From Planctomycetota bacterium (GTDB taxonomy: Bacteria; Planctomycetota; Phycisphaerae; SM23-33; FEN-1343): a DNA stretch of 27,378 nucleotides. Each line of letters starts with the position of its first letter. Positions within the stretch are counted from its first letter, which is position 1. The DNA is taken from the NCBI GenBank assembly GCA_012514895.1, contig JAAYZK010000107.1, positions 1 through 27,378 of the forward strand, written 5' to 3'. Shown piece after piece: positions 4,456 through 27,063 of this stretch. Position numbers and translations under genes: made by a program. The notes under the pieces were generated by a model. That model was not told the DNA's origin and searched no databases. It saw only the letters and a program-made list of their open reading frames with translations.

Positions 4456-4528
4456 GGGGACGTAGCTCAGTTGGGAGAGCGGCTGGTTCGCAATCAGCAG
4501 GTCGAGGGTTCGAATCCCTTCGTCTCCA
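4456..4528 (+). tRNA. tRNA-Ala, anticodon CGC; no CCA encoded.
   Basis: Cloverleaf folded by hand: acceptor GGGGACG/CGTCTCC carrying the G3:U70 alanine identity pair; D-arm GCTCAGTTGGGAGAGC; anticodon stem GCTGG/TCAGC with loop TTCGCAA (anticodon CGC); T-arm GAGGGTTCGAATCCCTT; discriminator A. Confidence 0.9.
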
Positions 4529-10473: not shown

Positions 10474-10653
10474 GGTTGCCTACTCCAATGCTCCTGTGCA
10501 GACGCCGCGACGACACCCGCGCCGGCAGCCCCCCACATCAAGACACTCATCTGTAGTCTAGCTTTCACAGCCGTCGCGTTGCAACGACCTTGCTCTTTTC
10601 AGCCCCCCGCCCCCGGCCCGGCCCCTCCTAAGCCGCACGAACGGAAGAACGGC

Positions 10654-10768
10654 GACGGCAGGCTGCAGGCTACCGGCTGCTGGCTGTAGGGGCGGTCGGC
10701 GCATAGCGTTGCCGTTCCTGCAGCCTGTAGCCAGCGGCCTGCCGTTCTCAGGCTGCCGTTCTTCCCTC
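10654..10768. repeat. Imperfect palindromic intergenic element built from GGAAGAACGGC / GCCGTTCTTCC and CAGGCTGCAGG / CCTGCAGCCTG arms. A core of about 22 bp (GCCGTTCCTGCAGCCTGTAGCC, 10719-10740) recurs in inverted orientation at 12301-12326.
   Basis: Reverse complement of 12301-12326 (CAGGCTGCAGGCTGCAGGAACGGCCT) is about 90% identical to 10719-10740. Both copies are intergenic. Confidence 0.55.
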
Positions 10769-10831
10769 GACGACCAGGGTCTGCCGTGGTACGATGCCGC
10801 CGATGATCGACCCTTGCCCGGAGGCACAGCC

Positions 10832-11155
10832 ATGATCCAGTGCCAGGACTGTGAGTTCTTCGAACATAACGCCAAAGGCGGATTCGGCTTCAAGTGCGAC
10901 CCTTTCCGCACGATCAAGGAGCCGGAGTGCCTCACCAAGTGGCAGCTCATCAAGATCGAGCAGATGGTGCAGGCCTACCAGGCAACGCTCGACTACTACC
11001 GCCGTCTGGCACCCCTGCAGGAAAAGATGTTCCGCGTCATGGAGCGCGAGATGGACGACCTCAACGAGTCCGAAAACTGGAAACTCGCCGACGACGAAGA
11101 AGAAGACGATGACGGTCCTTACGACGACGAAGACCGGTGGGGTCGCCCCACTTGA
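10832..11155 (+). CDS. Small (107 aa) hypothetical protein with an N-terminal Cys4 cluster (CxxC-x14-C-x10-C) and a strongly acidic C-terminal tail (DDEEEDDDGPYDDED). Start at MIQCQDCEFF (GGAGG 8 nt upstream), not the ORF-track start at 10709.
   Basis: RBS GGAGG before ATG 10832. The upstream part of the 148-aa ORF overlaps the palindromic repeat region and lacks an RBS. Composition is protein-like. Confidence 0.55.
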   Translation: MIQCQDCEFFEHNAKGGFGFKCDPFRTIKEPECLTKWQLIKIEQMVQAYQATLDYYRRLAPLQEKMFRVMEREMDDLNESENWKLADDEEEDDDGPYDDEDRWGRPT

Positions 11156-11234
11156 CGGTTGACGGGGGGCGCCTTGGGGCCCATAATCCGCCAAACGGTT
11201 AGGATTCACAGGTTTCTAAACAAAGGACACACCG

Positions 11235-12251
11235 ATGGCCGACGTTACGATTCTCTACGACAAGGACGGCTCGCTCGAGCCGCTGATGGGCAAGACCGTC
11301 GCCGTGCTCGGGTACGGCAGCCAGGGCCACGCCCACGCCCAGAACCTGCGGGACAGCGGCGTGAACGTCATCGTCGCCGAACTGCCCAAGACCGCCAACG
11401 GCAAGCTCGCCGCTGAGCACGGGTTCAAGCCCGTGTCGGCCGCCGAGGCCACCAAGAAGGCCGACCTGATCATCCTCACACTGCCCGACGAGGTCCAGTC
11501 GGTAGTGTACAAGAAGGAAATCGAACCGAACCTCAAGCCCGGCAAGGTGTTGGGCTTCTGCCACGGGTTCAACATCCACTTCAAACAGATCGTCCCGCCC
11601 GCCGGGGTCGACGTCGTCATGATCGCCCCCAAGGGCCCCGGGCACACCGTCCGGAGCTGTTATGAAGAAGGCTCGGGCGTCCCCTGCCTGATCGCCATCG
11701 AGAAGAACGACACCGGCAACGCCCGCGACATCGCCCTGGCCTGGGGCATCGGCATCGGCGGCGGCCGCGCCGGCATCATCGAGACCACCTTCAAGGAAGA
11801 GACCGAAACCGACCTGTTCGGCGAGCAGGTCGTCCTGTGCGGCGGGCTGACCGCCCTGGTCAAGGCGGGCTTCGACACCCTCGTCGAGGCCGGCTACAAG
11901 CCCCACATCGCCTACTTCGAGGTGCTCCACGAGCTGCTGCTGATCATCAAGCTCATGAGCGAGGGCGGGATCAGCTACATGCGCTACAGCATCTCTAACA
12001 CCGCCGAGTACGGCGACCTGACCCGCGGCCCGCGCCTGATCACCGACCAGACCCGCGCCGAAATGAGGAAGATCCTCAAGGAAATCCAGTCCGGCGCCTT
12101 CGCCAAGGAATGGCTCGACGAGTGCAAGGCCGGCAAGCCCAACTTCACGCGCCTCTACGAAGCCGACAAGAACCACCCCATCGAAGTCGTCGGCAGGCAG
12201 CTCCGCAAGATGTTCAGTTGGATGGAAGCCAAGGAAGCGCCGGAAGAATAG
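11235..12251 (+). CDS. ilvC: Ketol-acid reductoisomerase (class I, about 338 aa).
   Basis: [22 protein letters not shown]-binding signature. Conserved KARI motifs ([28 protein letters not shown]). Confidence 0.95.
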
Positions 12252-12300
12252 CACGCCAGGCCGACAACGACCTGCCTCCGCCAAGGCTTCGGCGGACAGG

Positions 12301-12326
12301 CAGGCTGCAGGCTGCAGGAACGGCCT
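12301..12326. repeat. Second copy (inverted) of the REP-like element core seen at 10719-10740, in the ilvC-GH3 intergenic region.
   Basis: CAGGCTGCAGGCTGCAGGAACGGCCTGG. See the feature at 10654-10768. Confidence 0.5.
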
Positions 12327-12426
12327 GGCGCCTGAGACTTGTGAGTGACCCACCAGCGGCCGCCCGGAATCCCGGACGGCCGCTGTTTCGCGCGATGAGA
12401 CACCCCCTGGAAGACAGAGAACGCCC

Positions 12427-14589
12427 ATGACCGACTCGCCCCTTTACCGGAACCCCGCCGCACCCGTGGACCAGCGCGTCGACGACCTGCTCGGCCGCAT
12501 GAGCCTCGAGGAGAAGGTCGGGCAGATGCTCCAGCTCGACGGCCGCAAGGACCCCCAGGCCGGCCTGCGCGAACGCCATCCCGGTTCCTTCCTCCACGTT
12601 CTCGGCGACGACGCCGTCGCCCTCCAGAACGCCGCGATGAAGACCCGCCTGGGGATCCCCCTGCTGTTCGGCATCGACGCCATCCACGGCCATTCCTTCT
12701 GGGCCGGGGCGACGATGTTCCCCACCCAGCTCGGCCTGGCCTGCGCGTGGAACGCCGACCTGGCCCACAGGGTCGGGCGGATCACGGCGATGGAGATGAG
12801 CCACACCGGCGTCCACTGGACCTTCGCCCCCGTGCTCTGCCTGGCACGCGATCTGCGATGGGGCCGCATCGACGAGACGTTCGGCGAGGACCCCCTGCTG
12901 ATCGGCGATCTGGCCTCGGCCATGATCGACGGCCTCCAGGGCGACGACCTCGGCGATCGCTACAGCGTCCTGGCCTGCGCCAAGCACTTCGCCGCCTACA
13001 GCGAGACGCACGGCGGGCGGGATGCCACCGAGGCCGACCTGTCGCGACGGAAGCTGCGCAGCACCTTCCTGCCGGCCTTCCGCCGGGCGACGGGCGCGGC
13101 GACGTACATGATCGGCTACCAGGCCATCGACGGGGTCCCCTGCACCGCCAGCCGATGGCTGCTGACCGAGGTGCTCCGCGAGGAGTGGGGCTTCGAGGGC
13201 TTCACCGTCACCGACTGGAACAACGTCGGGGCCCTGGTCACCCACCAGCACGTCGCCGCCGACATCGCCGCCGCCGCCGCCATGGCCGTCCGGGCCGGCT
13301 GCGACATGATCATGAACACGCCGGCGTTCTACGAAGGCGCCCTGGAGGCCGTCCACCGCGGCGACCTCGACGAGGCCCTCGTCGACCAGGCGGTCCGGCG
13401 GATCCTCCGGATGAAGTTCATCATGGGCCTGTTCGAAGACCCCCGCCTGCCCGATCCGGCCAGACGTCCCGAACTGATCGCCACCGACGAGCACAAGGCC
13501 GTCAATCTCCAGGCCGCCCGGGAGTCGATTGTTCTGCTCCGGAACAGCGGCCTGCTGCCGCTGGCGACCGAGACGCTGAAGAAGGTGGCGGTGATCGGCC
13601 CGAATGCCGACGACACGGTGGCGCAACTGGGCGACTGGTCGCTGGGCACCGGCCAGGCCGGCCAGGGCGCCCATCCCCGCCAGTCCATCACGACCGTCCT
13701 GGACGGACTGCGGGGGCGGCTGGAGGGCACGGCCGAGGTCGTCTACGCCAGGGGCTGCAACGTGGTGGATGACGACACCGGCGGCATCGACGAGGCGGTC
13801 CGGACGGCCACCGGCGCGGACGTGGCCATCGTGGTCGTCGGCGACCAGAAGCCCTTCATCGGCGAGGCCCGCTCGACCGCCACGCTCGAGCTGCAGGGCG
13901 CCCAGCAGGCGCTGCTGGAGGCGGTGCATGCGACCGGCACGCCGATGGTCGTCGTCCTGCTGGCCTCCAAGCCGCTGGCCGTCGAGTGGATCGACGGGCA
14001 CGCCGCCGCGGTCCTGGTCGCGTTCAACCCGGGCATGGCGGGCGGGCAGGCCGTCGCCGAGATCCTCTGCGGCGACGTGAACCCCTCCGGCAAGCTGCCC
14101 ATCAGCTTCGCCCGCCACGTCGGCCAGCAGCCGGTGTACTACAACCAGCTTCCCGGCCAGCACGGCACGAAGTACGCCGACCTCACGCAGGAGCCGCTCT
14201 ACCGGTTCGGCAAGGGCCTCAGTTACACGACCTTCGCCTACGGCAACCTGAGACTCGCCAGAAAGACGATCGCTCCCGGCGAGCCTGTCGCCTTCACCTT
14301 CGACGTGGCCAACACCGGCGGGCGGGACGGCGTCGAGATCGTCCAGGTCTACCTGCGCGACAGGATCACCTCCGTCACCTGGCCGCTCAAGACGCTCAAG
14401 GCCCACCGCCGCGTGGCGGTGAAGGCCGGGCGGACCGAGACGGTGAGCTTCACCCTCGACCACGACGCCCTGGCCCTGGTCGACGCGGACGGACGGTGGG
14501 TCGTCGAGCCCGGCGAGTTCGAGCTGCTCGTCGGGGCGTCGTCGGCCGACGAGGATCTGCTGGTGGCCGCGTTCGAGGTCACGGCGTAG
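12427..14589 (+). CDS. Glycoside hydrolase family 3 beta-glucosidase/beta-hexosaminidase-like (BglX-type), cytoplasmic with no signal peptide.
   Basis: GH3 N-terminal domain motifs (GIDAIHGHSF, FAPVLCLARDLRWGRIDETFGEDP, catalytic-region TDW), GH3 C-terminal domain and a fibronectin-like C-terminal region. 720 aa. Confidence 0.9.
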   Translation: MTDSPLYRNPAAPVDQRVDDLLGRMSLEEKVGQMLQLDGRKDPQAGLRERHPGSFLHVLGDDAVALQNAAMKTRLGIPLLFGIDAIHGHSFWAGATMFPTQLGLACAWNADLAHRVGRITAMEMSHTGVHWTFAPVLCLARDLRWGRIDETFGEDPLLIGDLASAMIDGLQGDDLGDRYSVLACAKHFAAYSETHGGRDATEADLSRRKLRSTFLPAFRRATGAATYMIGYQAIDGVPCTASRWLLTEVLREEWGFEGFTVTDWNNVGALVTHQHVAADIAAAAAMAVRAGCDMIMNTPAFYEGALEAVHRGDLDEALVDQAVRRILRMKFIMGLFEDPRLPDPARRPELIATDEHKAVNLQAARESIVLLRNSGLLPLATETLKKVAVIGPNADDTVAQLGDWSLGTGQAGQGAHPRQSITTVLDGLRGRLEGTAEVVYARGCNVVDDDTGGIDEAVRTATGADVAIVVVGDQKPFIGEARSTATLELQGAQQALLEAVHATGTPMVVVLLASKPLAVEWIDGHAAAVLVAFNPGMAGGQAVAEILCGDVNPSGKLPISFARHVGQQPVYYNQLPGQHGTKYADLTQEPLYRFGKGLSYTTFAYGNLRLARKTIAPGEPVAFTFDVANTGGRDGVEIVQVYLRDRITSVTWPLKTLKAHRRVAVKAGRTETVSFTLDHDALALVDADGRWVVEPGEFELLVGASSADEDLLVAAFEVTA

Positions 14590-15618: not shown

Positions 15619-16098
15619 TCACCCATGCAGCTTCACGGCCAGCTCGGCCACCATCGCCCCATACTCGCGGCCGTGTCGTGTGGCGCGGTCGTCGGGGACA
15701 TTGATGCCGACGGGCCCGTAGTGGTCGCCGCGGGCGACGCCCTTGACGACCATGCCGTGCACGAGCAGGCAGTTGAGGATGTCCAGGACGCAGGTCTCGT
15801 TGCCGCCGGCGAGGTTGGCCGAGGTGCAGAACGCCCCGCCGACCTTGCCGTCGAGTTTGCCGTGGTAAGCGACGGATTCGTCGATGAGCTTCTTGATCTC
15901 CCAGGCCATCGTCCCGTAGTAGACCGGCGAGCCGATCACGATCGCGTCGTAGCCCATCAGATCGGCGGCCTTGACCTGGGCGATCGGCTTGAAGTCCACC
16001 TCGGCGCCCGCCGTCTCGGCCGCCCCGTCCCGCACCGCCTCGGCCAGCGCCTGCGTGTGCCCGCTCCGCGTGTAGTACGTCACCAGTATCTTCGCCAT
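15619..16098 (-). CDS. Flavodoxin-fold NAD(P)H:quinone oxidoreductase / FMN reductase (WrbA-like), 160 aa. Start at MAKILVTYYTRSGHT (16098). The ORF-track extension to 16272 is rejected because it runs through tRNA-Leu.
   Basis: Flavodoxin-like FMN-binding N-terminus (ILVTYYTRSGHTQALAEAV), GSPVYYG motif. AAGGAA RBS about 14 nt upstream of ATG 16098. Confidence 0.85.
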   Translation of the reverse strand: MAKILVTYYTRSGHTQALAEAVRDGAAETAGAEVDFKPIAQVKAADLMGYDAIVIGSPVYYGTMAWEIKKLIDESVAYHGKLDGKVGGAFCTSANLAGGNETCVLDILNCLLVHGMVVKGVARGDHYGPVGINVPDDRATRHGREYGAMVAELAVKLHG

Positions 16099-16146
16099 GG
16101 GCGTCCCGTTCCTTTCCCGATGTTGTAGTCCGCACGTCCCGGCCAC

Positions 16147-16229
16147 TGGCCCGGGCGGGACTCGAACCCGCACGCCCTTGCGGGCAGGGGATTTTAAATC
16201 CCCAGCGTCTGCCATTCCGCCACCGGGCC
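16147..16229 (-). tRNA. tRNA-Leu, anticodon TAA, with a long variable arm; no CCA encoded.
   Basis: Reverse complement GGCCCGGTGGCGGAATGGCAGACGCTGGGGATTTAAAATCCCCTGCCCGCAAGGGCGTGCGGGTTCGAGTCCCGCCCGGGCCA. Acceptor GGCCCGG/CCGGGCC; anticodon stem GGGGA/TCCCC with loop TTTAAAA (anticodon UAA); long extra arm; T-arm GCGGGTTCGAGTCCCGC. Confidence 0.88.
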
Positions 16230-16244
16230 GGTGGGTGATGTTCC

Positions 16245-16272
16245 ATTCTATCCGCGACCGATGCGGATACAA
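16245..16272 (-). promoter_or_regulatory. Sigma70-like promoter candidate for tRNA-Leu on the minus strand: -35 TTGTAT, 16-nt spacer, -10 TAGAAT, about 15 nt before the tRNA 5' end. It overlaps an ATCCGC-N7-GCGGAT palindrome.
   Basis: Read from the reverse complement of 16245-16272. Confidence 0.4.
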
Positions 16273-16487
16273 CAGGACGCCAGGAGGTTATGAGAATCCG
16301 TCGCGGATTTTCCTTGCCGGATCGCCGGAAGGGTGCTAACGTTACATACGAATACTCCGGATCCGTTCGTCGCCGCCGGGTAAGGCGGAACCACGCGGGC
16401 GGGCCGGACGGTCAGAAAGGCACGGGGCCTTTCGCCGTTGGTGATCCCAGCCGACAGGCTGGGAGCCTAGCAGGAAGGAGTATCGTC

Positions 16488-17222
16488 ATGGGGCTTTTCA
16501 GGCGCATCCACCGTATCACCGTCGGCCGTGTCTCGGCGTTTCTCGATCGCGTGGAGGATCCCGAGATCGTCTTTCCCCAACTGCTTCGCGAGATGGAGCA
16601 GCAACTGCAGCAGGCCACGGGCCAGGAGGCCCGGGCGACCGCGGCGGTCACGCAGGTGGAGGTCAAGATCGACCGCCTCCGCCGCAAGGTCGAGGCCATG
16701 GGCCGCGGGGCCTTCCAGGCGCTCAAGCAGGACCGCGAGGACGTGGCCCGCGAGGCGCTGGGGGCGCAGATCGACACCGAACACGAGATCGAGCGGTTCG
16801 AGGCCAGCCTGGCGTCGCTGAAGGCCTCGCGCAACCTGGCCGAGGCGTCGCGCAAGCAGATCCAGCAGCAGCTCGAGCAGTTGCGCGCCCGCAAGCACGC
16901 CCTCATCACGCGCAGCCGTCTGGCGCGGACCCGCCGGCGGATCCAGCGGAGCCTCAACGGCGCGACGGTCTCCGGCGGCAGCATCCTCGACGCGGTCGCG
17001 CGGATGGAGGAGCACATCGAGTCCATCGAGGCCGAGATGGAGGTCCAGTGCCGCCTGACCGGCGAAGGGGTGCTCAACCCTGCCCTGGAGCTGAGTCTGG
17101 CCGAGCTGGACCAGGCCGGGCAGATCGACGAGCGCCTGGCGGACCTGAAGGTGCGCCTGAAGGGTCCGGGCAAGACCGCCCCGCTGGACCTGGCGCCGCA
17201 GACGGTCCAGTGGGGTCACTAG
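16488..17222 (+). CDS. pspA: PspA/IM30/Vipp1-family (ESCRT-III-like) protein, paralog 1 (244 aa). Start at MGLFRRIHRI (AGGAAGGAG RBS), not the ORF-track start at 16290.
   Basis: N-terminal amphipathic helix plus the conserved MGLFRR...FLDRVEDPE...LREMEQQL block typical of PspA/Vipp1. All-helical heptad-rich sequence; length about 220-250 aa. Confidence 0.88.
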   Translation: MGLFRRIHRITVGRVSAFLDRVEDPEIVFPQLLREMEQQLQQATGQEARATAAVTQVEVKIDRLRRKVEAMGRGAFQALKQDREDVAREALGAQIDTEHEIERFEASLASLKASRNLAEASRKQIQQQLEQLRARKHALITRSRLARTRRRIQRSLNGATVSGGSILDAVARMEEHIESIEAEMEVQCRLTGEGVLNPALELSLAELDQAGQIDERLADLKVRLKGPGKTAPLDLAPQTVQWGH

Positions 17223-17417
17223 GTCCCAATGTGCCCCATCGGCGGCGCCGCACGTGCGGCGCGGGTATCGGGACGATCGCCTTGGCACAGACGGATTGGG
17301 GCAGGCCGGTCGGGCACACGGTGACAGCGGAATGGGAAAGACGGCTTGCACGGCCGGGCGGCGGACGTTACTTTTGTGGCGCCCGGCCGTACGGCAGGCG
17401 GGCACGAGGGTACGACC

Positions 17418-18074
17418 ATGTCCATCCTAGCGCGAATCGGGCGGATCGCCAGGGCCAACATCCGTTGGCTCCTGGAGAAGGCCGAGCCGCCGGAACAGGA
17501 GTTGGCGGCGAAGATCGAGGAGCTGACCGCCGCGGTCGCCGAGTGCAAGGCCGCCGCGGGCACGTACGGGGCGACCTTCCGCCGCCTGGAGGCCGAGGCG
17601 GCCCAGCTTCGCGATCGCCAGGCCGGCCTGCACGAGCAGGCGGAGGCCGCGATCCGTGCCGGCGACGACGCGGCCGGCCGCGGCCTGCTGACGGAGAAGG
17701 TATCCGCCACGCAGCGGCTGGCGCAGCTCCAACCGGGGCTCGACCAGGGCCGCCGGACGCTCGACGAACTGCGGGACAACCTCGGCCGCCTGACCGATCA
17801 GCTCGCCGCGGCCCGCACGAAGCAGGCGGAGCTTCATGCCCGCCAGCGATCGGCGGCGGCCCGCAAGGCCTTCAGCGAGAACGCCGGGGCGGCCGACACG
17901 CTCGGCGGCGACGTGTTCGAACGCATGGACGACGAGGTCCTGCAGCTCGAGGCCGAGGCCGACGTCTGCGAGGACATGACCCGCTCGATGGACCTCGAGC
18001 GGCGGAGCCTGGAGCTCCAGGTCGAGGCGGAACTGGCCGCGATGAAGCAGCGTCTGACCGAGGGACGGCCATGA
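17418..18074 (+). CDS. pspA: PspA/IM30-family (ESCRT-III-like) protein, paralog 2 (218 aa). Start at MSILARIGRI.
   Basis: MSILARIGRIARANIRWLLEKAEPPEQEL matches the PspA N-terminus. Coiled-coil rich. Its stop overlaps the next gene's start (ATGA). Confidence 0.85.
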   Translation: MSILARIGRIARANIRWLLEKAEPPEQELAAKIEELTAAVAECKAAAGTYGATFRRLEAEAAQLRDRQAGLHEQAEAAIRAGDDAAGRGLLTEKVSATQRLAQLQPGLDQGRRTLDELRDNLGRLTDQLAAARTKQAELHARQRSAAARKAFSENAGAADTLGGDVFERMDDEVLQLEAEADVCEDMTRSMDLERRSLELQVEAELAAMKQRLTEGRP

Positions 18075-18784
18075 TCGAATTCCTGCAATTCGCCTTCCTG
18101 CCGGCCACGGCGGTGTTCTCCCTGCTGCTGGGCGTGGTGCTGCTGTACTGGCTGGTGGTGATCGTGGGGCTGCTGGACACGGACTTCCTGAACATCGACC
18201 TCCACACCGACGGGGATCTCGGCGATGTCGGCGACGCCGGGGACGTTGACGTCGATGCCGACGTCGATGTCGGCGAGGCCGGGGACCTGGGCGACGTGTT
18301 CCACGCGATGCTCTCGTTCTTCTACGTCGGCCGGATCCCGGTGACGGTGCTGGTGACGCTGATGGTGTTCAGCCTGTGGATCCTGGCGATGGCGGCCAAC
18401 CACGCCGTCAACCCGACCGGCGGCCTGCTGCTGGGGCTGCCGATCGCCGCGGGCAGTTTCGTCGCCAGCCTGTTCGTGGTGAAGGTGCTGGGATGGCCGT
18501 TCGCCAAGCTGTACCGGGCGATGGACGGCTCGCGCGACGGATTGAAGAACGTCACGGGCAAGCTGTGCGTCCTGCTGACGGCCGTCGGGCCGGGGCGCAC
18601 GGGCCAGGCGCAGGTGGCCACCGCCGGCGCGCCGGCCGTCGTGAACGTGATCGTCGAGGACGGCGTGACGCTGGAGCGCGGCTCGGAGGCGGTCGTCCTG
18701 GAATACCGCAAGGCGTCCCACGTGTACGTCGTGGCGCCGGTGGACCTGAACGCCCCGGCCAGGCCCGTCCAGGGCGCCGGCTGA
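18071..18784 (+). CDS. NfeD-like (YuaF-type) membrane protein: 3 TM helices plus a C-terminal OB-fold beta-barrel domain, with an unusual acidic (D-V/D-G)n repeat loop between TM1 and TM2. Translationally coupled to pspA paralog 2 (ATGA overlap).
   Basis: Only the last 237 aa of the 578-aa track ORF are real; the upstream part overlaps pspA-1 and pspA-2 out of frame. TM segments FLPATAVFSLLLGVVLLYWLVVIVGLL, IPVTVLVTLMVFSLWILAMAA and LLLGLPIAAGSFVASLFVV. C-terminal GKLCVLLTAVGPGRTGQAQVATAGAPAVVNVIVEDGVTLERGSEAVVLE fits the NfeD OB-fold pattern. Sits directly upstream of a flotillin gene, as yuaF-floT does in Bacillus. Confidence 0.68.
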   Translation: MIEFLQFAFLPATAVFSLLLGVVLLYWLVVIVGLLDTDFLNIDLHTDGDLGDVGDAGDVDVDADVDVGEAGDLGDVFHAMLSFFYVGRIPVTVLVTLMVFSLWILAMAANHAVNPTGGLLLGLPIAAGSFVASLFVVKVLGWPFAKLYRAMDGSRDGLKNVTGKLCVLLTAVGPGRTGQAQVATAGAPAVVNVIVEDGVTLERGSEAVVLEYRKASHVYVVAPVDLNAPARPVQGAG

Positions 18785-18888: not shown

Positions 18889-20904
18889 TTGCTTGCCGAT
18901 GCGATCACCCAAGGGATGCTCATCGTCGCCGGGATCGGGGTCTTCATCCTCCTGGTGGCCGTCTATGTGATCATCAGGTGTTTTCACAAGGTCAGCCAGG
19001 GCGAGGCGCTCATCCGCAACGGCGTGGGCGGCACGAAGGTGACGTTCAGCGGGCTGGTGGTCTGGCCGATCATCCACCGCGCCGAGTACATGGACATCTC
19101 GGTCAAGCGGATCGCCATCGACCGCCGGGGCGACACCGGGCTGATCTGCCGGGACAACCTCCGCGCGGACATCCAGGTGGCGTTCTTCGTCCGCGTCAAC
19201 CCCACCGTCGCCGACGTTACTGCCGTCGCCCAGTCGCTGGGGGTCAAGCGGGCCAGCGACGAGAAGGCCCTGTACGACCTGTTCGACTCGAAGTTCTCCG
19301 AGGCCCTCAAGACCGCCGGCAAGCGGTTCGACTTCGCCGAGCTGTACGTCTCGCGGGACAAGTTCAAGGAGGAGATCCTCCAGGTCATCGGGCGCGACCT
19401 GAACGGCTACGTCCTGGAAGACGCCGCCATCGACTACCTCGAGCAGACCGACAAGAACCTGCTGAATCCCAACAACATCCTGGACGCCGAGGGCATCAAG
19501 AAGATCACCGTCCTGACCGCCGAGCAGTTCGAGCTGGCCAACGCCCGCGAGCGCGAGAAGGACAAGACGATCACCAAGCAGAATGTCGAGGCCCAGGAGG
19601 CGATCCTCGAGCTCAACAAGCAGCTCGCCGAGGCCCAGGCCAAGCAGAAGCGCGAGGTCGAGTCGGTCACGGCCCGCGAGGAGGCCGAGGCCAAGCGCGT
19701 GATCGCCGAGGAGCGCGAGAAGGCCGAGAAGGCGCGCATCAGCGCCGACGAGCAGATCGCGGTGGCCGAGGAGAACAAGCAGCGCCAGGTCATCGTCGCC
19801 GCCCGCAACAAGGAACGGACTGACGGGGTCGAGACCGAACGGGTCCAGCGCGACCGGCAGTTGGAGAAGACCGAGCGCGAGCGCCTCGTCCGCCTGGCCG
19901 AACTGGAGCGCGACAAGGTGGTCGAGACGGAAAACCGCGAGCTGCAGAACGTCATCCGCGAGCGTGTGACGGTCGAGAAGTCCGTGGCGGTCGAGGAAGA
20001 GAAGATCAAGGATACCCGCGAATTCGCCGGGGCCGACCGTTCCAAGCGGGTGCAGATCACCAAGGCCGAAGAGCAGGCCGAGCAGGCCCTGGTCAAGGAC
20101 ATCAAGCAGGCCGAAGCCTCCAAGCGGGCCGCCGAGCAGTACGCCGCCCAGCAGCTCATCGAGGCCGAGGCGAACGAGAAGGCCTCGATCAAGAACGCCG
20201 AGGCCACCAAGATCCTGGCGGCCGCATCGGTGAAGGAGCACGCGGTCACCGGCACCGCCGAGGCCGAGGTGATGGAAGCCAAGGCTGTCGCCACCGAGAA
20301 GCAGGGCACCGCCGAGGCGGTCGTGCTGCAGCGGAAGTACTCGGCCGAGGCGCAGGGCATCACCGAGAAGGCCGACGCCATGAAGAAGTTCCACGACGCC
20401 GGCAAGGAACACGAGGAGTTCAAGCTCAAGCTCAACAAGGACCGCGACGTCGACCTCGCCGCCATCGAGGCCAACCGCCTCATCGCCGCCGAGCAGGCCA
20501 GGCTCGTCGCCGAGGGCCTGCGATCGGCCAAGATCGACATCGTCGGCGGGGAGAACGACTTCTTCCAGAAGCTCGTCGGCGCCATCGGCAACGGCAAGGC
20601 GGTCGACCGGATGGTCGGCGGCTCGGACGTCCTGACGCAGGTCAAGGACGCCTTCCTCGCCGACGACCCCGAGCAGGCCCGCACGCAGATCCGCCAGTTC
20701 ATCAGCCGCTTCGGCATGACCAGCGACGACCTGAAGAACCTGACGATCTCGGCGCTGCTGGTCAAGCTCATGGGGCAGGCCGACGGCGAGACGAAGAGCG
20801 CCCTCAGTGCCCTGCTGGACAACGTCAGGAAGCTCGGCCTGCACGACGAACCGGCCCACCTGCTCGACCCGGCGGCCCGCATCGACAGGCTGCCCCGCGG
20901 CTGA
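18889..20904 (+). CDS. SPFH/Band-7 flotillin-family protein (FloT/YqiK-like), 671 aa. The start is uncertain: TTG 18889 or ATG 18916.
   Basis: N-terminal membrane hairpin (LIVAGIGVFILLVAVYVII). SPFH domain (GEALIRNGVGG...VWPIIHRAEYMDISVKRIAI...). A long EA-rich coiled-coil region and a flotillin-like C-terminal region. Confidence 0.88.
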   Translation: MLADAITQGMLIVAGIGVFILLVAVYVIIRCFHKVSQGEALIRNGVGGTKVTFSGLVVWPIIHRAEYMDISVKRIAIDRRGDTGLICRDNLRADIQVAFFVRVNPTVADVTAVAQSLGVKRASDEKALYDLFDSKFSEALKTAGKRFDFAELYVSRDKFKEEILQVIGRDLNGYVLEDAAIDYLEQTDKNLLNPNNILDAEGIKKITVLTAEQFELANAREREKDKTITKQNVEAQEAILELNKQLAEAQAKQKREVESVTAREEAEAKRVIAEEREKAEKARISADEQIAVAEENKQRQVIVAARNKERTDGVETERVQRDRQLEKTERERLVRLAELERDKVVETENRELQNVIRERVTVEKSVAVEEEKIKDTREFAGADRSKRVQITKAEEQAEQALVKDIKQAEASKRAAEQYAAQQLIEAEANEKASIKNAEATKILAAASVKEHAVTGTAEAEVMEAKAVATEKQGTAEAVVLQRKYSAEAQGITEKADAMKKFHDAGKEHEEFKLKLNKDRDVDLAAIEANRLIAAEQARLVAEGLRSAKIDIVGGENDFFQKLVGAIGNGKAVDRMVGGSDVLTQVKDAFLADDPEQARTQIRQFISRFGMTSDDLKNLTISALLVKLMGQADGETKSALSALLDNVRKLGLHDEPAHLLDPAARIDRLPRG

Positions 20905-21049: not shown

Positions 21050-24000
21050 ATGGCCGATAACCCGACAACGCAGTCGCAGACCGACAGCCCATCGAGCGAC
21101 ATCCAGCTCGAAGGCGGGACGTACGAGATCATCCGCAACCGCCTCCGCAAGCACGCCGACGACCTGCGAGGCCGCCTCGACAGGCTCAATGAGGCGCGCA
21201 AGGCCGTCTTCGGGGCGATCGAGACGAAGCTGCTCAGCTCCGAGCGGATCACGACCGACAACAACTGCATCCCGCGGGACATGATCACCGTCGGCGAGCG
21301 GTTCCTGTTCGGCTACAACGTCTTCATCGGCCTGCGCAGCGAAACGCGGCTGGAAGACGTCTTCGCGATGGTCCGCCGCACCGAAGGCCGTTTCGCCGCC
21401 GAGCCGCTCGACGCGATCGCCGACAAGGCGTTCCTGGCCGAATTCCGCAACCTCTACCAGTACTACCGCGGCGCGACTTTCGCGAAGTTCGCGGTGCTCG
21501 GCCCCTGCCTGTACATGGTTTTCCGCGTCGGCCGCGGAGCCGCCGACATCAAGGCGTTCAAGTGGCGCCTGACGGGCGACGGCGGCCTGGAGTACGCCGA
21601 CAGCCGGTCGACGCACGAGTTCGTCTTCCCGCCCCAGCACGAGTTCGCCTGGACGCGGGCCACGCACGACATGCACCGCTCGGGCGCCTGCCCGCACGTG
21701 TCGATCGAGGACCGCCTCTTCGTCGAGACCGTCGGCGGCGACCTGACAATCAAGATCGAGGACAACACCGCCACCGGCGAGGGCGTCTACAGCGAGCCGG
21801 TCGACAACGCCGACCAGACGCTCGACGACGCGGAGATCCACTATGCCGTCGTCGGCAACCTCATCCTGCTGAAGATCCGGCCCTACCAGGAGGAGGCGTA
21901 CCGGCACCTCGTCTTCAACGAGAAGACCCAGGACGTCGTCCGTATCGACTCGATCGCCGACGCCTGCGTCCTCCTGCCCGACGGGCACGGGCTGATCTTC
22001 CCCAAGGGCTACTACCTCCAGACCGGCCAGCAGAAGCTCTTCAACAACGACATGGAGGGGATGGTCTTCGAGAAGCGCCTGGCCAGCCCCAACGGCGAAG
22101 ACCACCTCTACGTCTTCTACAACCCCGACAGCGGCCAGTACGTCCTGCTGAGCTACAACGTCATCACGCAGGAGGTCGCCACCCCCATCGCCTGCGGCGG
22201 CTACTGCCTCTTCGACGACGGCACGCTGATGTACTTCCGCGCCGGCGATGAACCCCAGCGCCACCACGTCATCCAGATCTGGCAGACGCCCTACTGCGCC
22301 GCCGACCGCCTCACCGCGGCGCCGTCCGACACGTACCTGTTCAAGATCGGCAACAGGGAGATCGTCCGCTGCATGGCCGAGTGCGGCGAACTGCTGACGC
22401 TGCTGGCCAAGGAGGACTCCTACGCCAACCTCTACGTCGACCTCGCCCGGCGTGCAGAGGACATCCGCGATGCGTACTTCTGGCTGGGCAGCGCCGAGGC
22501 ATACGATCTCGCCGAACCGCTCGGGCAGATCCACGCCGCTGCCGCCTCGGCGATCGAGGAATACGAGAAGGTCGTCCGCACCCGCCAGGAGACCGCACGC
22601 CAAATCGCGGCCGTCGACAAGCGGGTCGGCGAACTGCTGAACCGCTCGAAGCGCGACCCGCTGAACGACGTCGACGCGTACGTCGCCCTGCTGGCCGACT
22701 TGCGGGCCGTGCGGGGCGAAGTGGTCACGTTGCGGGAACTGCGGTACGTCGACGCCGCGAAGGTCGAGGCCCTCGATCAGCAGGTGGCCGCGCGGACCGA
22801 CGAGCTGTCGGCCGGTTGTGTCGAGTTTCTCCTGCAGGAAGACAGCCTGCGGCCCTACCACGACCGCGTCGAGGCCCTGGACGCGGAGATCCCGCAGGCC
22901 GCAACGGCCGCGGCGGCGCGGGAGGTGGCCCAGGCCGTCGCGCAGACGGGCCGCGAGCTGGAGATGCTCACGGAGATCGTCTCGAACCTCAGGATCGACG
23001 ACGCCACGAAGACCACCGCGATCATCGACGGGATCTCGCTGGTCTACCAGCGGCTCAACCAGGTCAAGAGCAGCCTGCGGAACCGCCTGGACGAGCTGGG
23101 GCGCGCCGAAGGCCAGGCGGAATTCGCCTCGCAGACCCGCCTGCTGGACCAGGCGGCGGCGAACTACCTGGACGTGTGCGACGCGCCCGGGAAATGCGAC
23201 GACTACCTCGCCCGCCTGATGGCCCAGGCCGAGACGCTCGAAGCCCGTTTCGCCGACTTCGACGAGTTCATCCTGGCCCTCACCGCCAAGCGGGAGGAGC
23301 TCTACAACGCCTTCGAGGGCCGCAAGGTCCAGCTCGTCGAGCAGCGCAACCGCCGCGCGACGGCCCTGATGACGTCGGCCGAGCGGATCCTCAAGGGGAT
23401 CGCCAACCGCGTCGCGGCGATGGACGACCTCAACGCCATCGGCGGGTACTTCGCCGGGGACCTGATGATCGAGCGGCTGCGTGCGACGATCGATCAGCTC
23501 GAGCAGCTCGGCGACACGGTCAAGGCCGAGGACGTCCGCAGCCGCCTCAAGAGCATCCAGCAGGAGACCGTCCGCCAGCTCAAGGACCGTCAGGCGCTGT
23601 ACGAGGACGGCGACAACGTCATCCGTCTGGGCGAGCACCGCTTCGCCGTCAACCGCCAGCCGCTGGAACTGACGATCGTCCACCGCGACGGGGGGCTGTG
23701 GTTCCACCTGGCCGGGACGGGGTTCTTCGAGCCCATCGCCGACGAGGCCGTCGAGTCCTGCCGGGATGTGTGGGGCCTGGAGGTGATCTCCGAGACGCCC
23801 GAGGTCTACCGCGCCGAGTACCTCGCCTGGCAGTTCCTCGCCGCGGCCCGCGCCGACGGGAGCCTGGCCGGCCTGGCAGCCGCCGAACCGGCGGCCCTGC
23901 AGGAGCGGGTCCGCGCCTTCATGGCCGGCCGCTACGCCGAGGGGTACGTCAAGGGCGTCCACGACGCCGACGCCGCGGCCATCGCGGCGGCCCTGGTGCG

Positions 24001-26383
24001 GATGGAGACCACGCTGGGCCTGCTGCGGTACGGCCCGGCCGAGCGGGCGCTGGCGACGACGTTCTGGGGGCTGTGGGACGACGACAGCGACGGACAGAAA
24101 TGGCGGCTCAAGTCCCGCCTGGCGGCGATGGGGCACCTCCGCCGCCTCTTCGACCACGCCGCCGACGGCGGCCGCGACATCGCCGACCTGCGGGGGCGCC
24201 TGGAGCGATTCGCCCAGGCGACGCGGCTGTTCCCCGTCGAGCTGTGCGGCACGGCCGCCGAGTACCTTTTCCACGAACTGCTGGCCGCCAGACCGTTCGC
24301 GGTCTCGCAGCGGGCGGTCCAGTTGAAGGGCGACTTCCTCCGCCACCTGGAGCGGCAGGGTTTCGACGCGACCTTCCGGGCGGCCCTGGACGCCGTCGGC
24401 GCCGAACCCGCCGAGGCCTTCCGCCTGCGACGGGACTGGGTCCGGGCGTACCTGGCCGGCAACGGCCACGCCGACGACGCCGACGAGGTCGCCGCGCTCC
24501 TGGACGACGAGGACGCCGAGCGCACGGTCATCGCCGCCGAGACCACGGTGGAACTGACCGGCCTGGTCGGCTCGCACCCGCTCATCCGGGACGGCCGCTA
24601 CACGCTCGACTACCTGCGATTCGTCGGCCGCCTCGACCGCCACCAGCGGGTCGTCGCCCCGGCGTTCGCCCGATTCCAGGAGGCCAAGAAGGCCCTCACG
24701 GAGCAGTTCGCGCGGCAGTTGCGGCTCAGCGAGTTCGAGCCGCGGGTCCTGACGACGTTCGTCCGCAACCGGCTGATCGACCGGGTATACCTGCCGCTGC
24801 TGGGCGACAACCTGGCCAAGCAGATCGGTTCGGCCGGCGCGCAGAAGCGCACGGACCGCCAGGGGCTGCTGCTGCTGATCAGCCCGCCGGGGTATGGCAA
24901 GACGACGCTGATGGAGTACATCGCCAACCGCCTGGGGCTGATCTTCATGAAGATCAACGGCCCGGCCGTCGGCCACGCCGTCACCAGCCTGGACCCCGAC
25001 GAGGCCCCCAACGCCGCCGGGCGGGCCGAACTGCAGAAGCTCAACCTCGCCTTCGAGATGGGCGACAACGTGATGATCTACCTGGACGACATCCAGCACT
25101 GCAGCCCCGAATTGCTGCAGAAGTTCATCTCGCTGTGCGACGCCCAGCGGCGGGTCGAGGGCGTCTACAAGGGCCGCACCCGCACGTACGACCTGCGGGG
25201 CAAGCGCGTCTGCGTCGTCATGGCCGGCAACCCCTACACCGAGAGCGGGGAGACCTTCCGCATCCCGGACATGCTGGCCAACCGCGCCGACACGTACAAC
25301 ATCGGCGATATCGTCGGCGACAACTACGAGAGCTTCGTCGACAGCTACATCGAGAACTGCCTGACCTCCAACCCCGTCCTCGCCCCGCTCGCCCAGAGAA
25401 GCCAGGCCGACGTGTACAGCGTCATGAAGCTCGCGGGCGGCGCGTCGAGCGACGGGATCGACTTCGAAGGGCAGTACGCGCCCGACGAACTGAACCAGTT
25501 CGTCGCCACGATGAAGAAGCTCTTCGTCGTCCGCGAGGTCCTGCTGAAGGTCAACCAGCAGTACATCCGCTCGGCCGGCCAGGCCGACGAGTACCGCACC
25601 GAGCCGCCCTTCCTGCTGCAGGGCTCGTATCGCAACATGAACCGCATCGCCGCGCGCGTCGTGGCGGTGATGAACGACGCCGAACTGTGGACGCTGATCC
25701 TGGCGGCCTACGAGCAGGACGCCCAGACGCTCACCACCGGCGCCGAAAGCAACCTCCTGAAGTTCAAGGAGATGGTCGGCCGCCTCCGCGATGACGAGAA
25801 GGACCGCTGGGAGGCCATCAAGGCCACCTACCGCCGCCGCCAGTTGCTCGGCGGCAGCGACGAGGACAAGATCACGCAGGTCATCCGCCAGATCAACGCC
25901 CTCTCCGGGGGCCTGGACACCATCGGCGCCGCACTGGGCAAAGGCAGGGAGCAGTTCGCCGGCCTGGCCGGCGGGCTGGAGGGCATCCGCGCCGCCGTCG
26001 AGAAGGCGGCCGCCGCCGGGCGGACGGACGAGGGCCTCGCCGAACGGCTCGACGAAGTCGTCGCCGCCATCCGCCGGCAGGCGGCCCTGACGGCCGAGAC
26101 CGCGCGGCGGCACGAGGCGCTGACGATCAACGACAACGCCCAGACGCTGGTGGCGGTGCTCGAGGAGCAGTTCCAGATGCTCGAAACGTGGCTGGCGCCC
26201 GTCGAGCGCAGCGTCGAAGGGCGGGCGCAGTACATCGGCGACCTGATCGAGCGATTCCAGGCCATGGTTGAGGGGTATACTCAGTTGATCGCCCTGTTGA
26301 ACCGCAAGCGTGCCCTGCCGCAGGCGGGCGAGCCCCGGTTGGGCGATCCGGATGCGGCGCCGGACGAGGATAGGGGCGTGTAG
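21050..26383 (+). CDS. Giant (1777 aa) uncharacterised cytoplasmic protein. N-terminal beta-rich region of about 480 aa, a central coiled-coil/helical region of about 700 aa, and a C-terminal MoxR/AAA_5-like P-loop ATPase module (Walker A ISPPGYGKTT, Walker B-like MIYLDDIQH, sensor-1 VVMAGNPY, Arg in MLANRAD).
   Basis: Single uninterrupted ORF with protein-like composition throughout. No signal peptide or TM segments seen by eye. AAA_5/MoxR-like motif order in residues about 1290-1480. All overlapping long ORFs are Arg/Gly/Pro-rich artefacts. Confidence 0.85.
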   Translation: MADNPTTQSQTDSPSSDIQLEGGTYEIIRNRLRKHADDLRGRLDRLNEARKAVFGAIETKLLSSERITTDNNCIPRDMITVGERFLFGYNVFIGLRSETRLEDVFAMVRRTEGRFAAEPLDAIADKAFLAEFRNLYQYYRGATFAKFAVLGPCLYMVFRVGRGAADIKAFKWRLTGDGGLEYADSRSTHEFVFPPQHEFAWTRATHDMHRSGACPHVSIEDRLFVETVGGDLTIKIEDNTATGEGVYSEPVDNADQTLDDAEIHYAVVGNLILLKIRPYQEEAYRHLVFNEKTQDVVRIDSIADACVLLPDGHGLIFPKGYYLQTGQQKLFNNDMEGMVFEKRLASPNGEDHLYVFYNPDSGQYVLLSYNVITQEVATPIACGGYCLFDDGTLMYFRAGDEPQRHHVIQIWQTPYCAADRLTAAPSDTYLFKIGNREIVRCMAECGELLTLLAKEDSYANLYVDLARRAEDIRDAYFWLGSAEAYDLAEPLGQIHAAAASAIEEYEKVVRTRQETARQIAAVDKRVGELLNRSKRDPLNDVDAYVALLADLRAVRGEVVTLRELRYVDAAKVEALDQQVAARTDELSAGCVEFLLQEDSLRPYHDRVEALDAEIPQAATAAAAREVAQAVAQTGRELEMLTEIVSNLRIDDATKTTAIIDGISLVYQRLNQVKSSLRNRLDELGRAEGQAEFASQTRLLDQAAANYLDVCDAPGKCDDYLARLMAQAETLEARFADFDEFILALTAKREELYNAFEGRKVQLVEQRNRRATALMTSAERILKGIANRVAAMDDLNAIGGYFAGDLMIERLRATIDQLEQLGDTVKAEDVRSRLKSIQQETVRQLKDRQALYEDGDNVIRLGEHRFAVNRQPLELTIVHRDGGLWFHLAGTGFFEPIADEAVESCRDVWGLEVISETPEVYRAEYLAWQFLAAARADGSLAGLAAAEPAALQERVRAFMAGRYAEGYVKGVHDADAAAIAAALVRMETTLGLLRYGPAERALATTFWGLWDDDSDGQKWRLKSRLAAMGHLRRLFDHAADGGRDIADLRGRLERFAQATRLFPVELCGTAAEYLFHELLAARPFAVSQRAVQLKGDFLRHLERQGFDATFRAALDAVGAEPAEAFRLRRDWVRAYLAGNGHADDADEVAALLDDEDAERTVIAAETTVELTGLVGSHPLIRDGRYTLDYLRFVGRLDRHQRVVAPAFARFQEAKKALTEQFARQLRLSEFEPRVLTTFVRNRLIDRVYLPLLGDNLAKQIGSAGAQKRTDRQGLLLLISPPGYGKTTLMEYIANRLGLIFMKINGPAVGHAVTSLDPDEAPNAAGRAELQKLNLAFEMGDNVMIYLDDIQHCSPELLQKFISLCDAQRRVEGVYKGRTRTYDLRGKRVCVVMAGNPYTESGETFRIPDMLANRADTYNIGDIVGDNYESFVDSYIENCLTSNPVLAPLAQRSQADVYSVMKLAGGASSDGIDFEGQYAPDELNQFVATMKKLFVVREVLLKVNQQYIRSAGQADEYRTEPPFLLQGSYRNMNRIAARVVAVMNDAELWTLILAAYEQDAQTLTTGAESNLLKFKEMVGRLRDDEKDRWEAIKATYRRRQLLGGSDEDKITQVIRQINALSGGLDTIGAALGKGREQFAGLAGGLEGIRAAVEKAAAAGRTDEGLAERLDEVVAAIRRQAALTAETARRHEALTINDNAQTLVAVLEEQFQMLETWLAPVERSVEGRAQYIGDLIERFQAMVEGYTQLIALLNRKRALPQAGEPRLGDPDAAPDEDRGV

Positions 26384-26394
26384 AGGATGTACCG

Positions 26395-27063
26395 ATGGGA
26401 CTGATCAGCCGTCTGCGGCGCATTACCCGGGGGCGGATCGAGGCGTTTCTGGACGCCCTGGAAGACCCCGCCCTCATCGTGCCCCAGTTGATCGACGAAC
26501 TCGCCGACCAGGTGAAGGTGGCCGCGAACGCCGAGGCCAAGTCACTGACGGCCGTCAAGGCGCACCAGCGGAAGCTGGATGAAGCGACGGGCCGTGCGCT
26601 GCGGATGCAGCGGGGCGCCGAACTGGCGCTGGCGGCCGGCAAGGAGGATCTCGCCCGCCAGGCGGTGGCTCTCCAGCTTCAGGCCGAGCGCGACCAGCAG
26701 TCGCTGCGCGACATGCTCGCCGGCGCCCAGGCCGCCCACGCTGAAGCCCGCACCGTCCGCCGGCAGCTCGCCGCCGAACTGGAGTCGCTCCGCGCCCGTC
26801 GCGGGGAGCTGATCCGCCGCGCCAAGGCGCCTTCGGGCCCCGCACCCGCCCGCATCGCCTCGGACGGCCGGCGCCTGCTGGACGACGTCGCCCGCATGGA
26901 GGAGAAGGCCGTCGATGCTTCCGACGCCGCCGACGCCGCCGACGAGACCGCAGCACTGATCGAATCGGACCTCGCCTCCCGCCAGGTCGACGACCTCCTC
27001 CGCGACAACGAGGTCCAGCGGAGACTGGAGGACCTCAGGAAGCAGGTGGGCGGGCCCGGGTGA
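26395..27063 (+). CDS. pspA: PspA/IM30-family (ESCRT-III-like) protein, paralog 3 (222 aa), 11 bp downstream of the giant ATPase gene.
   Basis: MGLISRLRRITRGRIEAFLDALEDPALIVPQLIDEL matches the PspA/Vipp1 N-terminal block. Coiled-coil rich. A GAGG lies 7 nt upstream of the ATG. Confidence 0.85.
   Translation: MGLISRLRRITRGRIEAFLDALEDPALIVPQLIDELADQVKVAANAEAKSLTAVKAHQRKLDEATGRALRMQRGAELALAAGKEDLARQAVALQLQAERDQQSLRDMLAGAQAAHAEARTVRRQLAAELESLRARRGELIRRAKAPSGPAPARIASDGRRLLDDVARMEEKAVDASDAADAADETAALIESDLASRQVDDLLRDNEVQRRLEDLRKQVGGPG

Follow-up and report, generated by a model that had tools for sequence, protein, structure and literature searches.

Operons in which genes for CesT/Tir-like proteins, PspA, YqiJ and flotillin accompany a gene for a protein made of a beta-propeller, a coiled coil and an AAA-ATPase were described computationally by Ravi et al. 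2024 (PMC11237479), who found flotillin-YqiJ(-ATPase) operons of a shorter form to be more widespread, listed a 'Betapropeller+Coiled-coil+AAA-ATPase' entry for Dokdonia in their Table S3 and suggested ESCRT-like roles for PspA-AAA+ pairs. Comparable membrane scaffolds are outlined in two further reports, according to which SPFH-NfeD pairs build cytoplasmic cages and FloA-NfeD keeps unfolded proteins in an ATP-free manner (PMC13086221), and the AAA+ protease FtsH is housed inside the HflK/C cage (PMC13220708). Here, a contig of 27,378 nucleotides (nt) from a Planctomycetota bacterium (JAAYZK010000107.1, assembly GCA_012514895.1; hereafter the window) was analyzed around a gene at positions 21050..26383 of the forward strand, which encodes a protein of 1777 amino acids (aa) with a DUF3686-DUF7902-AAA+ architecture (hereafter the ATPase). 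Within the DUF3686-DUF7902-AAA+ family the ATPase is a typical case, and the window, instead of revealing a system of a new kind, offers a PspA-rich version of a known operon type. On balance, the ATPase is probably an ATP-driven remodeller of a scaffold of flotillin and YqiJ, to which PspA is a lineage-specific addition.

Flotillin and YqiJ are the conserved genetic partners of the ATPase

In a scan of one genome per species, relatives of the ATPase were found encoded at at least 585 loci, in at least 585 species genomes; the family occurs in at least nine phyla. The best 80 of these loci, from Planctomycetota, Verrucomicrobiota, Bacteroidota, Desulfobacterales, Kiritimatiellota and Clostridia, were taken as the locus set, and hidden Markov models built from the window proteins were run on their six-frame open reading frames (ORFs). 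Proportions refer to testable loci, for instance the 65 that had enough upstream DNA for flotillin. A flotillin-like gene was located directly upstream of the ATPase gene and on the same strand in 62 of the 65 testable loci, and a YqiJ-like gene was detected in 54 of 62. PspA was found nearby in 19 of 55 (18 upstream, 1 downstream), and the downstream PspA gene of the window was shared only by the two closest loci (L001 and L002). The order YqiJ-flotillin-ATPase is kept in plasmid pQBR103 of Pseudomonas fluorescens and in Streptomyces, Deinococcus and Vibrio. All-against-all clustering of the remaining ORFs from the 80 loci revealed only two other recurrent neighbours, a CesT/Tir-like protein of 131 aa (15 loci) and a divergent helix-turn-helix (HTH) regulator (16 loci), both restricted to PspA-bearing loci of the Bacteroidota type; no VWA family was present among the clustered neighbours. 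The conserved genetic partners of the ATPase are therefore flotillin and YqiJ, PspA being a frequent but non-universal addition.

In the window, the genes of the cluster are all on the forward strand and are tightly spaced at two junctions, with a 4-nt overlap between the second PspA gene and the YqiJ-like gene and an 11-nt gap between the ATPase gene and the third PspA gene. Predicted co-transcription with the YqiJ-like and flotillin genes implies that the ATPase most likely works on their products. A scan for sigma-70 promoters and terminators showed nothing beyond the expectation from shuffled sequences.

The gene at 18889..20904 encodes a YqiK-type flotillin (SPFH) of 671 aa, in which an N-terminal membrane anchor and the SPFH domain are followed by a coiled coil rich in E, A and K and by a C-terminal region that is conserved. 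Neither Pfam (cut-off 0.01) nor NCBIfam recognises this protein. A profile made from it and 12 orthologues matched Escherichia coli YqiK in hhalign with a probability of 100% (E=1.1e-39, 405 columns), homologues of it go by the name 'flotillin family protein' or YqiK, and a profile search of the PDB retrieved QmcA alone (E=0.0098). Its single hydrophobic stretch (residues 1-37) is followed by basic residues. Flotillins linked to the ATPase exceed E. coli YqiK by about 110 residues, and the C-terminal region (residues ~430-671; GKEHEEFKL ... IDIVGGE..FF) is strongly conserved and does not align to YqiK. This region is a candidate docking site for the ATPase.

The YqiJ-like (NfeD-type) membrane protein of 237 aa (18071..18784) was identified by three hydrophobic segments, by a match to Pfam YqiJ_N at the edge of the cut-off (E=1.1e-4, 22.8 bits, cut-off 23) and by BLASTP similarity to E. 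coli YqiJ (E=0.007). Its start overlaps the preceding stop within the tetranucleotide ATGA. Between hydrophobic segments 1 and 2 (residues ~35-75) it contains an acidic, repetitive D/G/V-rich loop (DTDFLNIDLHTDGDLGDVGDAGDVDVDADVDVGEAGDLGD), which may be a cation-binding loop.

Three PspA/IM30 paralogues complete the cluster. Paralogue 1 (310 aa, 16290..17222), the first gene of the cluster, matches PF04012 over residues 68-287 (E=7.7e-26) and TIGR02977 (E=1e-28); the 67-residue N-terminal extension ahead of its PspA domain may be real, or its start may have been called too far upstream. Paralogue 2 (242 aa, 17346..18074; PF04012 E=3.1e-24) precedes the YqiJ-like gene, and paralogue 3 (222 aa, 26395..27063; PF04012 E=4.9e-13) starts 11 nt past the ATPase stop codon.

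Several loci departed from the common arrangement. L014, L017 and L026 (two Bacteroidota and one Desulfobacteraceae) showed no flotillin, YqiJ or PspA gene in over 7 kb of DNA upstream, even after thresholds were relaxed; the partners of these ATPases may be encoded at other sites of these genomes. The flotillin gene was split or duplicated in L010 (5577-6128 and 6195-8345) and L042, and the ATPase gene of a Rubripirellula metagenome-assembled genome (L050) was divided into two ORFs (8546-10876 and 11198-13861); these cases may be pseudogenes or assembly errors. In the well-studied megaplasmid pQBR103 of P. fluorescens SBW25 (L082, record positions 85112-97641), a run of genes for PspA, a rhomboid protease, DUF2491, DUF350, DUF1190 and a glutathionylspermidine-synthase-like protein precedes YqiJ-SPFH-ATPase; here the E. 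coli yjf-type cluster and the flotillin module stand together, and the host is amenable to genetics.

The ATPase is a complete member of a large family

The 1777-aa ORF and its exact coordinates, as given in the initial annotation, were borne out. Its GC content at codon positions 1, 2 and 3 (0.69, 0.42 and 0.95, respectively) matches that of other real genes in the window, whose overall GC content is 68%; an antisense ORF of 1762 aa lying opposite is a shadow ORF. The database record of the identical protein is named 'AAA domain-containing protein'. The possibility that the ORF was really two genes, joined through a missed stop or a frameshift, was examined and is not the case: homologues of 1740-1890 aa are co-linear with the ATPase, with alignments over 97-100% of its length, which indicates a single gene. 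Query coverage was 97-100% and identity 52-67% for nearly all of the 120 matches listed; identity to gammaproteobacterial and other members was 30-45%. With a sliding window of 19 residues on the Kyte-Doolittle scale, the maximum mean was 1.37 and no hydrophobic segment was found. In line with the earlier claim, no membrane-spanning segment is thus predicted, and from its sequence the ATPase is a soluble cytoplasmic protein.

Pfam assigned residues 38-477 to DUF3686 (PF12458; E=1.9e-187, 623.7 bits against a cut-off of 25, covering the full 448-position profile) and residues 598-681, within the helical region, to DUF7902 (PF25472; E=3.4e-25, 88.5 bits against a cut-off of 26). The N-terminal ~1250 residues, which had been considered unannotatable, hence contain two described families. 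Nor is the architecture unusual, as had been held: it is the standard layout of a large family, already present in Pfam and in Ravi et al. 2024. A total of 6993 homologues were retrieved at E<=1e-10, co-linear and typically of 1600-1900 aa, and the sequences of their ATPase modules form 938 clusters at 50% identity. Culturable carriers include Proteus mirabilis, Vibrio, Flavobacterium, Hymenobacter, Streptomyces and P. fluorescens with pQBR103. In tblastn searches of plasmids, 13 megaplasmids or chromids carried the gene, and no homologue was found among 50,697 phage records. One homologue of the Planctomycete type (P0098, 1844 aa) has ankyrin-repeat Pfam domains added to the DUF3686-AAA+ architecture.

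Members of the family are named 'DNA repair ATPase' or 'AAA domain-containing protein' in databases, or 'MoxR-like ATPase' at JGI. The 'DNA repair' label is without support in sequence, structure or gene context, and as a product name it is probably misleading and spread by annotation pipelines.

A propeller-like head and a helical arm precede the AAA+ module

An AlphaFold model of residues 1-497, built with 15 sequences (mean predicted local distance difference test score, pLDDT, 73.8), showed a helix at 24-54, about 26 strands grouped in fours, and helices at 429-496. The DUF3686 region (21161..22480) would thus consist of a beta-propeller-like core at ~60-427 clasped by helices 24-54 and 429-496. 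With this model as the query, the top 50 Foldseek matches were all beta-propellers, including DCAF1, prolyl oligopeptidase, tricorn and Cdc20, at E-values from 3e-6 to 2.5e-4 and low template modelling (TM) scores; on account of the latter the head is termed beta-propeller-like, in agreement with Ravi et al. (PMC11237479). The beta-rich N-terminus that had been read from the sequence was accordingly recovered in the model.

A second AlphaFold model, of residues 478-1677, was built from 80 diverse sequences (pLDDT 86, predicted TM score 0.66). It contained an all-helical region at residues 488-850 (22511..23599) with helices of 20-58 aa joined by short turns, in which DUF7902 lies (22841-23092). 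This is followed by a small beta domain (residues 857-895; 23618..23734) conserved at a mean identity of 58% across phyla, a helical globular domain (921-1152; 23810..24505; mean identity 32%) without a Pfam match, a small beta element (1159-1187) and a long helix (1188-1224). A simple heptad scan did not discriminate, and the AlphaFold secondary structure was used instead. The coiled coil that the initial annotation had placed at 480-1200 holds in so far as coiled-coil-like helices occupy ~488-850, but it is not one coil extending to 1200, since other domains follow after 857; in the model it is a stretch of about 360 residues of antiparallel helical bundles, plus further domains. The ATPase module is also not at the very C-terminus, as had been described: its a/b core at 1241-1417 is followed by a lid that reaches to ~1600 and by a poorly conserved, variable helical tail (1601-1777; 25850..26380; gap fraction 34%). 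The AAA+ core had a mean identity of 76% across phyla, against 50% in the propeller, 41% in the helical arm and 16% in the tail.

The AAA+ module has a family-wide signature of its own

The a/b core of the module (24770..25300) was delimited with AlphaFold, Pfam and Foldseek. In the model its elements follow the order b1, a1, b2, a2, b3, a3, pre-sensor-1 beta-hairpin, b4, a4, b5, which is the canonical AAA+ order with an added hairpin; b1 spans residues 1273-1277, b2 1298-1303, a2 1322-1337, b3 1341-1346, the hairpin 1368-1381, b4 1387-1393 and b5 1413-1417. Walker A (SPPGYGKTT, residues 1278-1286, with K1284; 24881..24907) was present in 133 of 140 motif-bearing cluster representatives. Walker B (YLDDIQH, 1344-1350, with D1346 and D1347; 25079..25099) lies on b3, and sensor 1 (MAGNPYT, 1391-1397, with N1394; 25220..25240) at the end of b4. 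In the motif PDMLANRAD (1406-1414; 25265..25291), R1412 ends a4 just before b5, which is the position of an arginine finger. The helical lid (1418-1600; 25301..25849) carries the invariant motifs YRTEPPF (1515-1521) and QGSYRNMNR (1524-1532), the latter with a sensor-2-like R1528. The NP sensor and the candidate arginine finger that had been picked out earlier are thus both present.

In a survey of 150 representatives of clusters at 50% identity, SPPGYGKTT, [LI]Y[LVI]DDIQH, MAGNPYT and PDMLANRAD were nearly invariant, as were YRTEPPF and QGSYRNMN of the lid. Across phyla, 80 positions of the core were conserved at 95% or more. The nucleotide site (K1284, D1346/D1347, N1394, R1412, R1528) is complete and under very strong constraint. 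All Walker B motifs found among the representatives read DD(I/V)QH. The Walker B sequence LDDIQH had been reported correctly in the initial annotation; being invariant, the DD is a signature of the family and not a local oddity. The initiator AAA+ proteins DnaA and DnaC also have DD and hydrolyze ATP slowly. By analogy, DD would not imply an inactive site, and the behaviour of the ATPase may be switch-like.

The placement of the module among AAA+ clades was less uniform. Pfam gave weak matches at residues 1261-1397 to AAA_5, AAA, AAA_22 and RuvB_N (E from 1e-6 to 5e-5). AAA_5 was the best (28.9 bits against a cut-off of 22, E=1.3e-6), with AAA (PF00004) and AAA_22 almost equal to it; RuvB_N reached 23.5 bits against a cut-off of 27, and AAA_3 did not match the ATPase. 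NCBIfam matches were confined to the P-loop and below threshold, with 23.4 bits for the RuvB equivalog NF000868 (cut-off 282) and 20.8 bits for TIGR00635 (cut-off 299). In searches of PDB sequences with phmmer and with the family profile, p97/VCP and RuvB were matched just between the P-loop and b2, a span of about 40 residues; these matches are uninformative on clade, and no close relative with a solved structure was found in them. Foldseek against the PDB ranked dynein heavy chains first (E=5e-8), at a TM score of only 0.13; the match was taken to reflect helices plus an AAA_5-type module and not as evidence of full-length homology to dynein. The best single-domain matches were CbbQ2 (6l1q_A, E=6.3e-5, TM 0.63 of the target) and NorQ (TM 0.5-0.59), with RuvB, ClpA, Lon and ClpX ranking below them at close E-values. 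In hhalign, the family profile matched E. coli RavA weakly (probability 5.9%, E=0.0064, 134 columns between Walker A and the arginine finger) and RuvB with a probability of 94% (E=1e-7) over a short span of 73 columns, from Walker A to Walker B.

The canonical strand order, the Pfam AAA matches and the AAA+ neighbours in Foldseek confirm the earlier assignment of the domain to AAA+ rather than to ABC or RecA-like proteins, and the pre-sensor-1 hairpin places it outside the classical Vps4/p97 clade. The label MoxR-like was partly upheld, by the motif layout, by AAA_5 as the best Pfam AAA match and by CbbQ2 and NorQ as closest folds. Against it, no helix-2 insert is predicted (only a loop and a 4-residue helix separate b2 from a2), no VWA was found in the 80 loci, and RavA was matched more weakly than RuvB. 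The observation that VWA and MIDAS partners are missing was sound: no VWA domain was detected among the window proteins scanned, and the ATPase has no DxSxS motif. The module can best be regarded as an AAA+ family of its own, nearest to MoxR/AAA_5 in its modelled fold but short of two MoxR hallmarks.

Probable remodelling of a flotillin/YqiJ scaffold, and its alternatives

In the reading considered probable here, the ATPase would oligomerise through its AAA+ module at the cytoplasmic face of the inner membrane, where the SPFH and coiled-coil parts of flotillin would lie on the same side, and its propeller head and helical arm would dock it on the flotillin/YqiJ scaffold. ATP would be used to assemble, open or dismantle this scaffold, or to extract proteins held in it. 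In the PspA-bearing lineages, about one third, the same motor may also turn over polymers of PspA, the bacterial ESCRT-III, during membrane repair. The analysis shows that the ATPase belongs to the family, how its domains are laid out, and that its motifs and gene linkage are conserved; that it oligomerises, touches flotillin or PspA and remodels them is inferred. The SPFH-NfeD cages, the holding of proteins by FloA-NfeD and the HflK/C-FtsH assembly provide the analogy for such a scaffold.

Several observations weigh against this reading. Gene linkage is evidence of a functional connection and not of a physical mechanism, and 3 of the 65 testable loci have no nearby flotillin. Selection of the 80 loci by similarity to the query biases the proportions towards Planctomycetota, Verrucomicrobiota and Bacteroidota. 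Aspartate in place of the catalytic glutamate of Walker B may result in slow, switch-like hydrolysis. The pore-loop-1 position (NGPAVGHAVTSLDPDEAPNA) is conserved and non-aromatic, with an aromatic residue in only 10 of 80 sequences, which makes threading in the style of Vps4 or ClpX doubtful, since threading AAA+ unfoldases use an aromatic residue at this place; taken with the DD Walker B, this speaks against a simple threading unfoldase of the Vps4 type. Finally, literature searches on DUF3686, on PspA or NfeD with flotillin and an ATPase, on PspA disassembly and on the DNA repair label yielded no experiment on the family and no paper naming DUF3686.

That the ATPase is a Vps4-like motor dedicated to PspA, recycling polymers of the three neighbouring paralogues with flotillin and YqiJ merely as a membrane platform, is considered unlikely. 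Such a motor would agree with the three PspA genes flanking the ATPase gene, one of them immediately past its stop, with the occurrence of PspA near 19 of 55 loci and in pQBR103, with the apparent absence of a bacterial Vps4 equivalent according to a review (PMC7619361) and with the ESCRT-like PspA-AAA+ roles proposed by Ravi et al. However, about 65% of loci have no nearby PspA and 95% have flotillin, Pfam detected no MIT or Vps4_C domain in the ATPase at E<=1, the aromatic pore loop is not conserved, the predicted pre-sensor-1 hairpin is a feature absent from the classical Vps4 clade, and the p97/VCP matches are limited to the ~40 residues from P-loop to b2. The initial annotation had proposed a functional analogue of Vps4 or PspF for the adjacent PspA proteins; its first half is retained as a possible role, secondary to flotillin and YqiJ, and its second half fails. 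A PspF-like transcriptional regulator of the psp genes would explain an AAA+ protein beside PspA genes, yet the defining GAFTGA motif was not found in the ATPase, Pfam found neither a Sigma54_activat nor an HTH domain in it, and the architecture, 1777 aa that include a propeller and a helical arm, does not resemble that of enhancer-binding proteins, so that this role is excluded.

A classical MoxR-type chaperone, which with a VWA/MIDAS partner would mature a client complex or insert a cofactor, is suggested by AAA_5 as top Pfam AAA match, CbbQ2 and NorQ as top single-domain structural matches, the JGI label and the parallel motif pattern. It is made improbable by the lack of a VWA domain among the window proteins scanned and of a DxSxS motif in the ATPase, the unpredicted helix-2 insert hairpin, the weak RavA profile match and the ~1240 extra N-terminal residues; besides the CesT-like and HTH genes of Bacteroidota, no further conserved neighbour family emerged from the 80 loci. 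Similarly improbable is a membrane-based anti-phage or stress abortive module in which the ATPase senses invasion and triggers membrane remodelling. The presence of the family on megaplasmids and chromids, including pQBR103, and its patchy distribution among phyla would fit, but the PADLOC matches were trivial (P-loop only, E ~1e-3), the phage records held no homologue, and the window neighbours are housekeeping genes and no defence island; a defence or phage origin is thus unsupported. Even less credence is given to the DNA repair ATPase of the database label, for which the Pfam description of DUF3686, the NCBI product names, a weak similarity to RuvB_N and RuvB, and a mutL gene 13 kb upstream in the window could be invoked. 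The RuvB similarity spans only Walker A to Walker B and scores 23.4 bits where 282 are needed, no DNA-binding or nuclease domain was detected, the genes conserved next to it encode membrane proteins, a tRNA gene and metabolic genes that are unrelated lie between mutL and the cluster, and the literature searches found no paper tying the family to DNA repair.

Remodelling of the flotillin/YqiJ scaffold therefore remains the preferred account. A bolder version, advanced only tentatively and with more doubt than belief, sees in the family an AAA+ mechanoenzyme with a single module, akin to MoxR and dynein, which supplies bacterial membrane-scaffold systems with their missing energy source. It would grip cages of YqiK-type flotillin and YqiJ, plus PspA (ESCRT-III) where present, by its propeller head and helical arm and drive their assembly or dismantling with ATP, as a functional counterpart of Vps4 from a different AAA+ clade. 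PspA and Vipp1 have, according to the 2025 review cited above (PMC7619361), no known Vps4-like ATPase, and the family is a concrete candidate for this task, as it is for driving the turnover of bacterial flotillin/NfeD assemblies. It could make testable which ATPase drives flotillin and PspA dynamics in bacteria, and the assignment of its partners is now sharpened to flotillin and YqiJ first, and PspA second.

Other features of the window

The remaining genes of the window are housekeeping ones: a serA-like gene, mutL, and genes for an S41 peptidase, IlvC, a GH3 enzyme and an aldo-keto reductase. An Rfam scan of the window found two tRNAs and nothing else, namely tRNA-Ala (CGC) at 4456-4528 on the forward strand and tRNA-Leu (anticodon UAA) at 16147-16229 on the reverse strand, 60 nt upstream of the first PspA gene. 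The tRNA-Leu gene overlaps the 5' end of a mechanically called ORF (15619-16272, reverse strand); the flavodoxin-like domains of this ORF begin only at residue 61, so its true start is probably further in. At the left end, an ORF at 8-736 of the forward strand encodes NrpR regulatory domains NRD1/2 (PF01995, E=1.6e-75) and may extend past the end of the window. The NrpR family is best known for archaeal nitrogen repressors.

Comparison with known systems

The two genes upstream of the ATPase gene are homologous to E. coli yqiJ-yqiK and in the same order, and in E. coli K-12 no ATPase gene follows yqiK. With HflK/C-FtsH, QmcA-YbbJ and FloA-NfeD, as presented in PMC13086221 and PMC13220708, the locus has in common an SPFH and NfeD-type pair with genetic or physical ties to an AAA+ enzyme acting at the inner membrane, the tie in the window being genetic. 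Unlike FtsH, to which it is unrelated in sequence, the ATPase has no protease domain or membrane anchor. With MoxR proteins (CbbQ, NorQ, RavA; AAA_5/AAA_3) it shares the pre-sensor-1 hairpin, the closest single-domain structures and the parallel motifs DE/DD-I-N/Q, (A)xNP, (D/N)R(F/A) and GxS/YxR, and it differs from them in its ~1240 extra N-terminal residues, in DD for DE in Walker B, in having no predicted helix-2 insert and no VWA/MIDAS partner found, and in its weak profile similarity to RavA. As in the Vps4-ESCRT-III systems of archaea and eukaryotes, the AAA+ gene adjoins genes of the ESCRT-III superfamily (PspA), and a recycling role may be analogous; the ATPase belongs, however, to a different AAA+ clade, has no MIT domain or aromatic pore loop and has flotillin as its conserved partner. 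The closest correspondence is to the operons of Ravi et al. (PMC11237479), with which the window shares the same Pfam domains, the length class, the invariant ATPase motifs and the order YqiJ, flotillin, ATPase. It differs from them in lacking a CesT/Tir-like gene and in carrying PspA three times, with two of the paralogues upstream of the ATPase gene and the third directly downstream.

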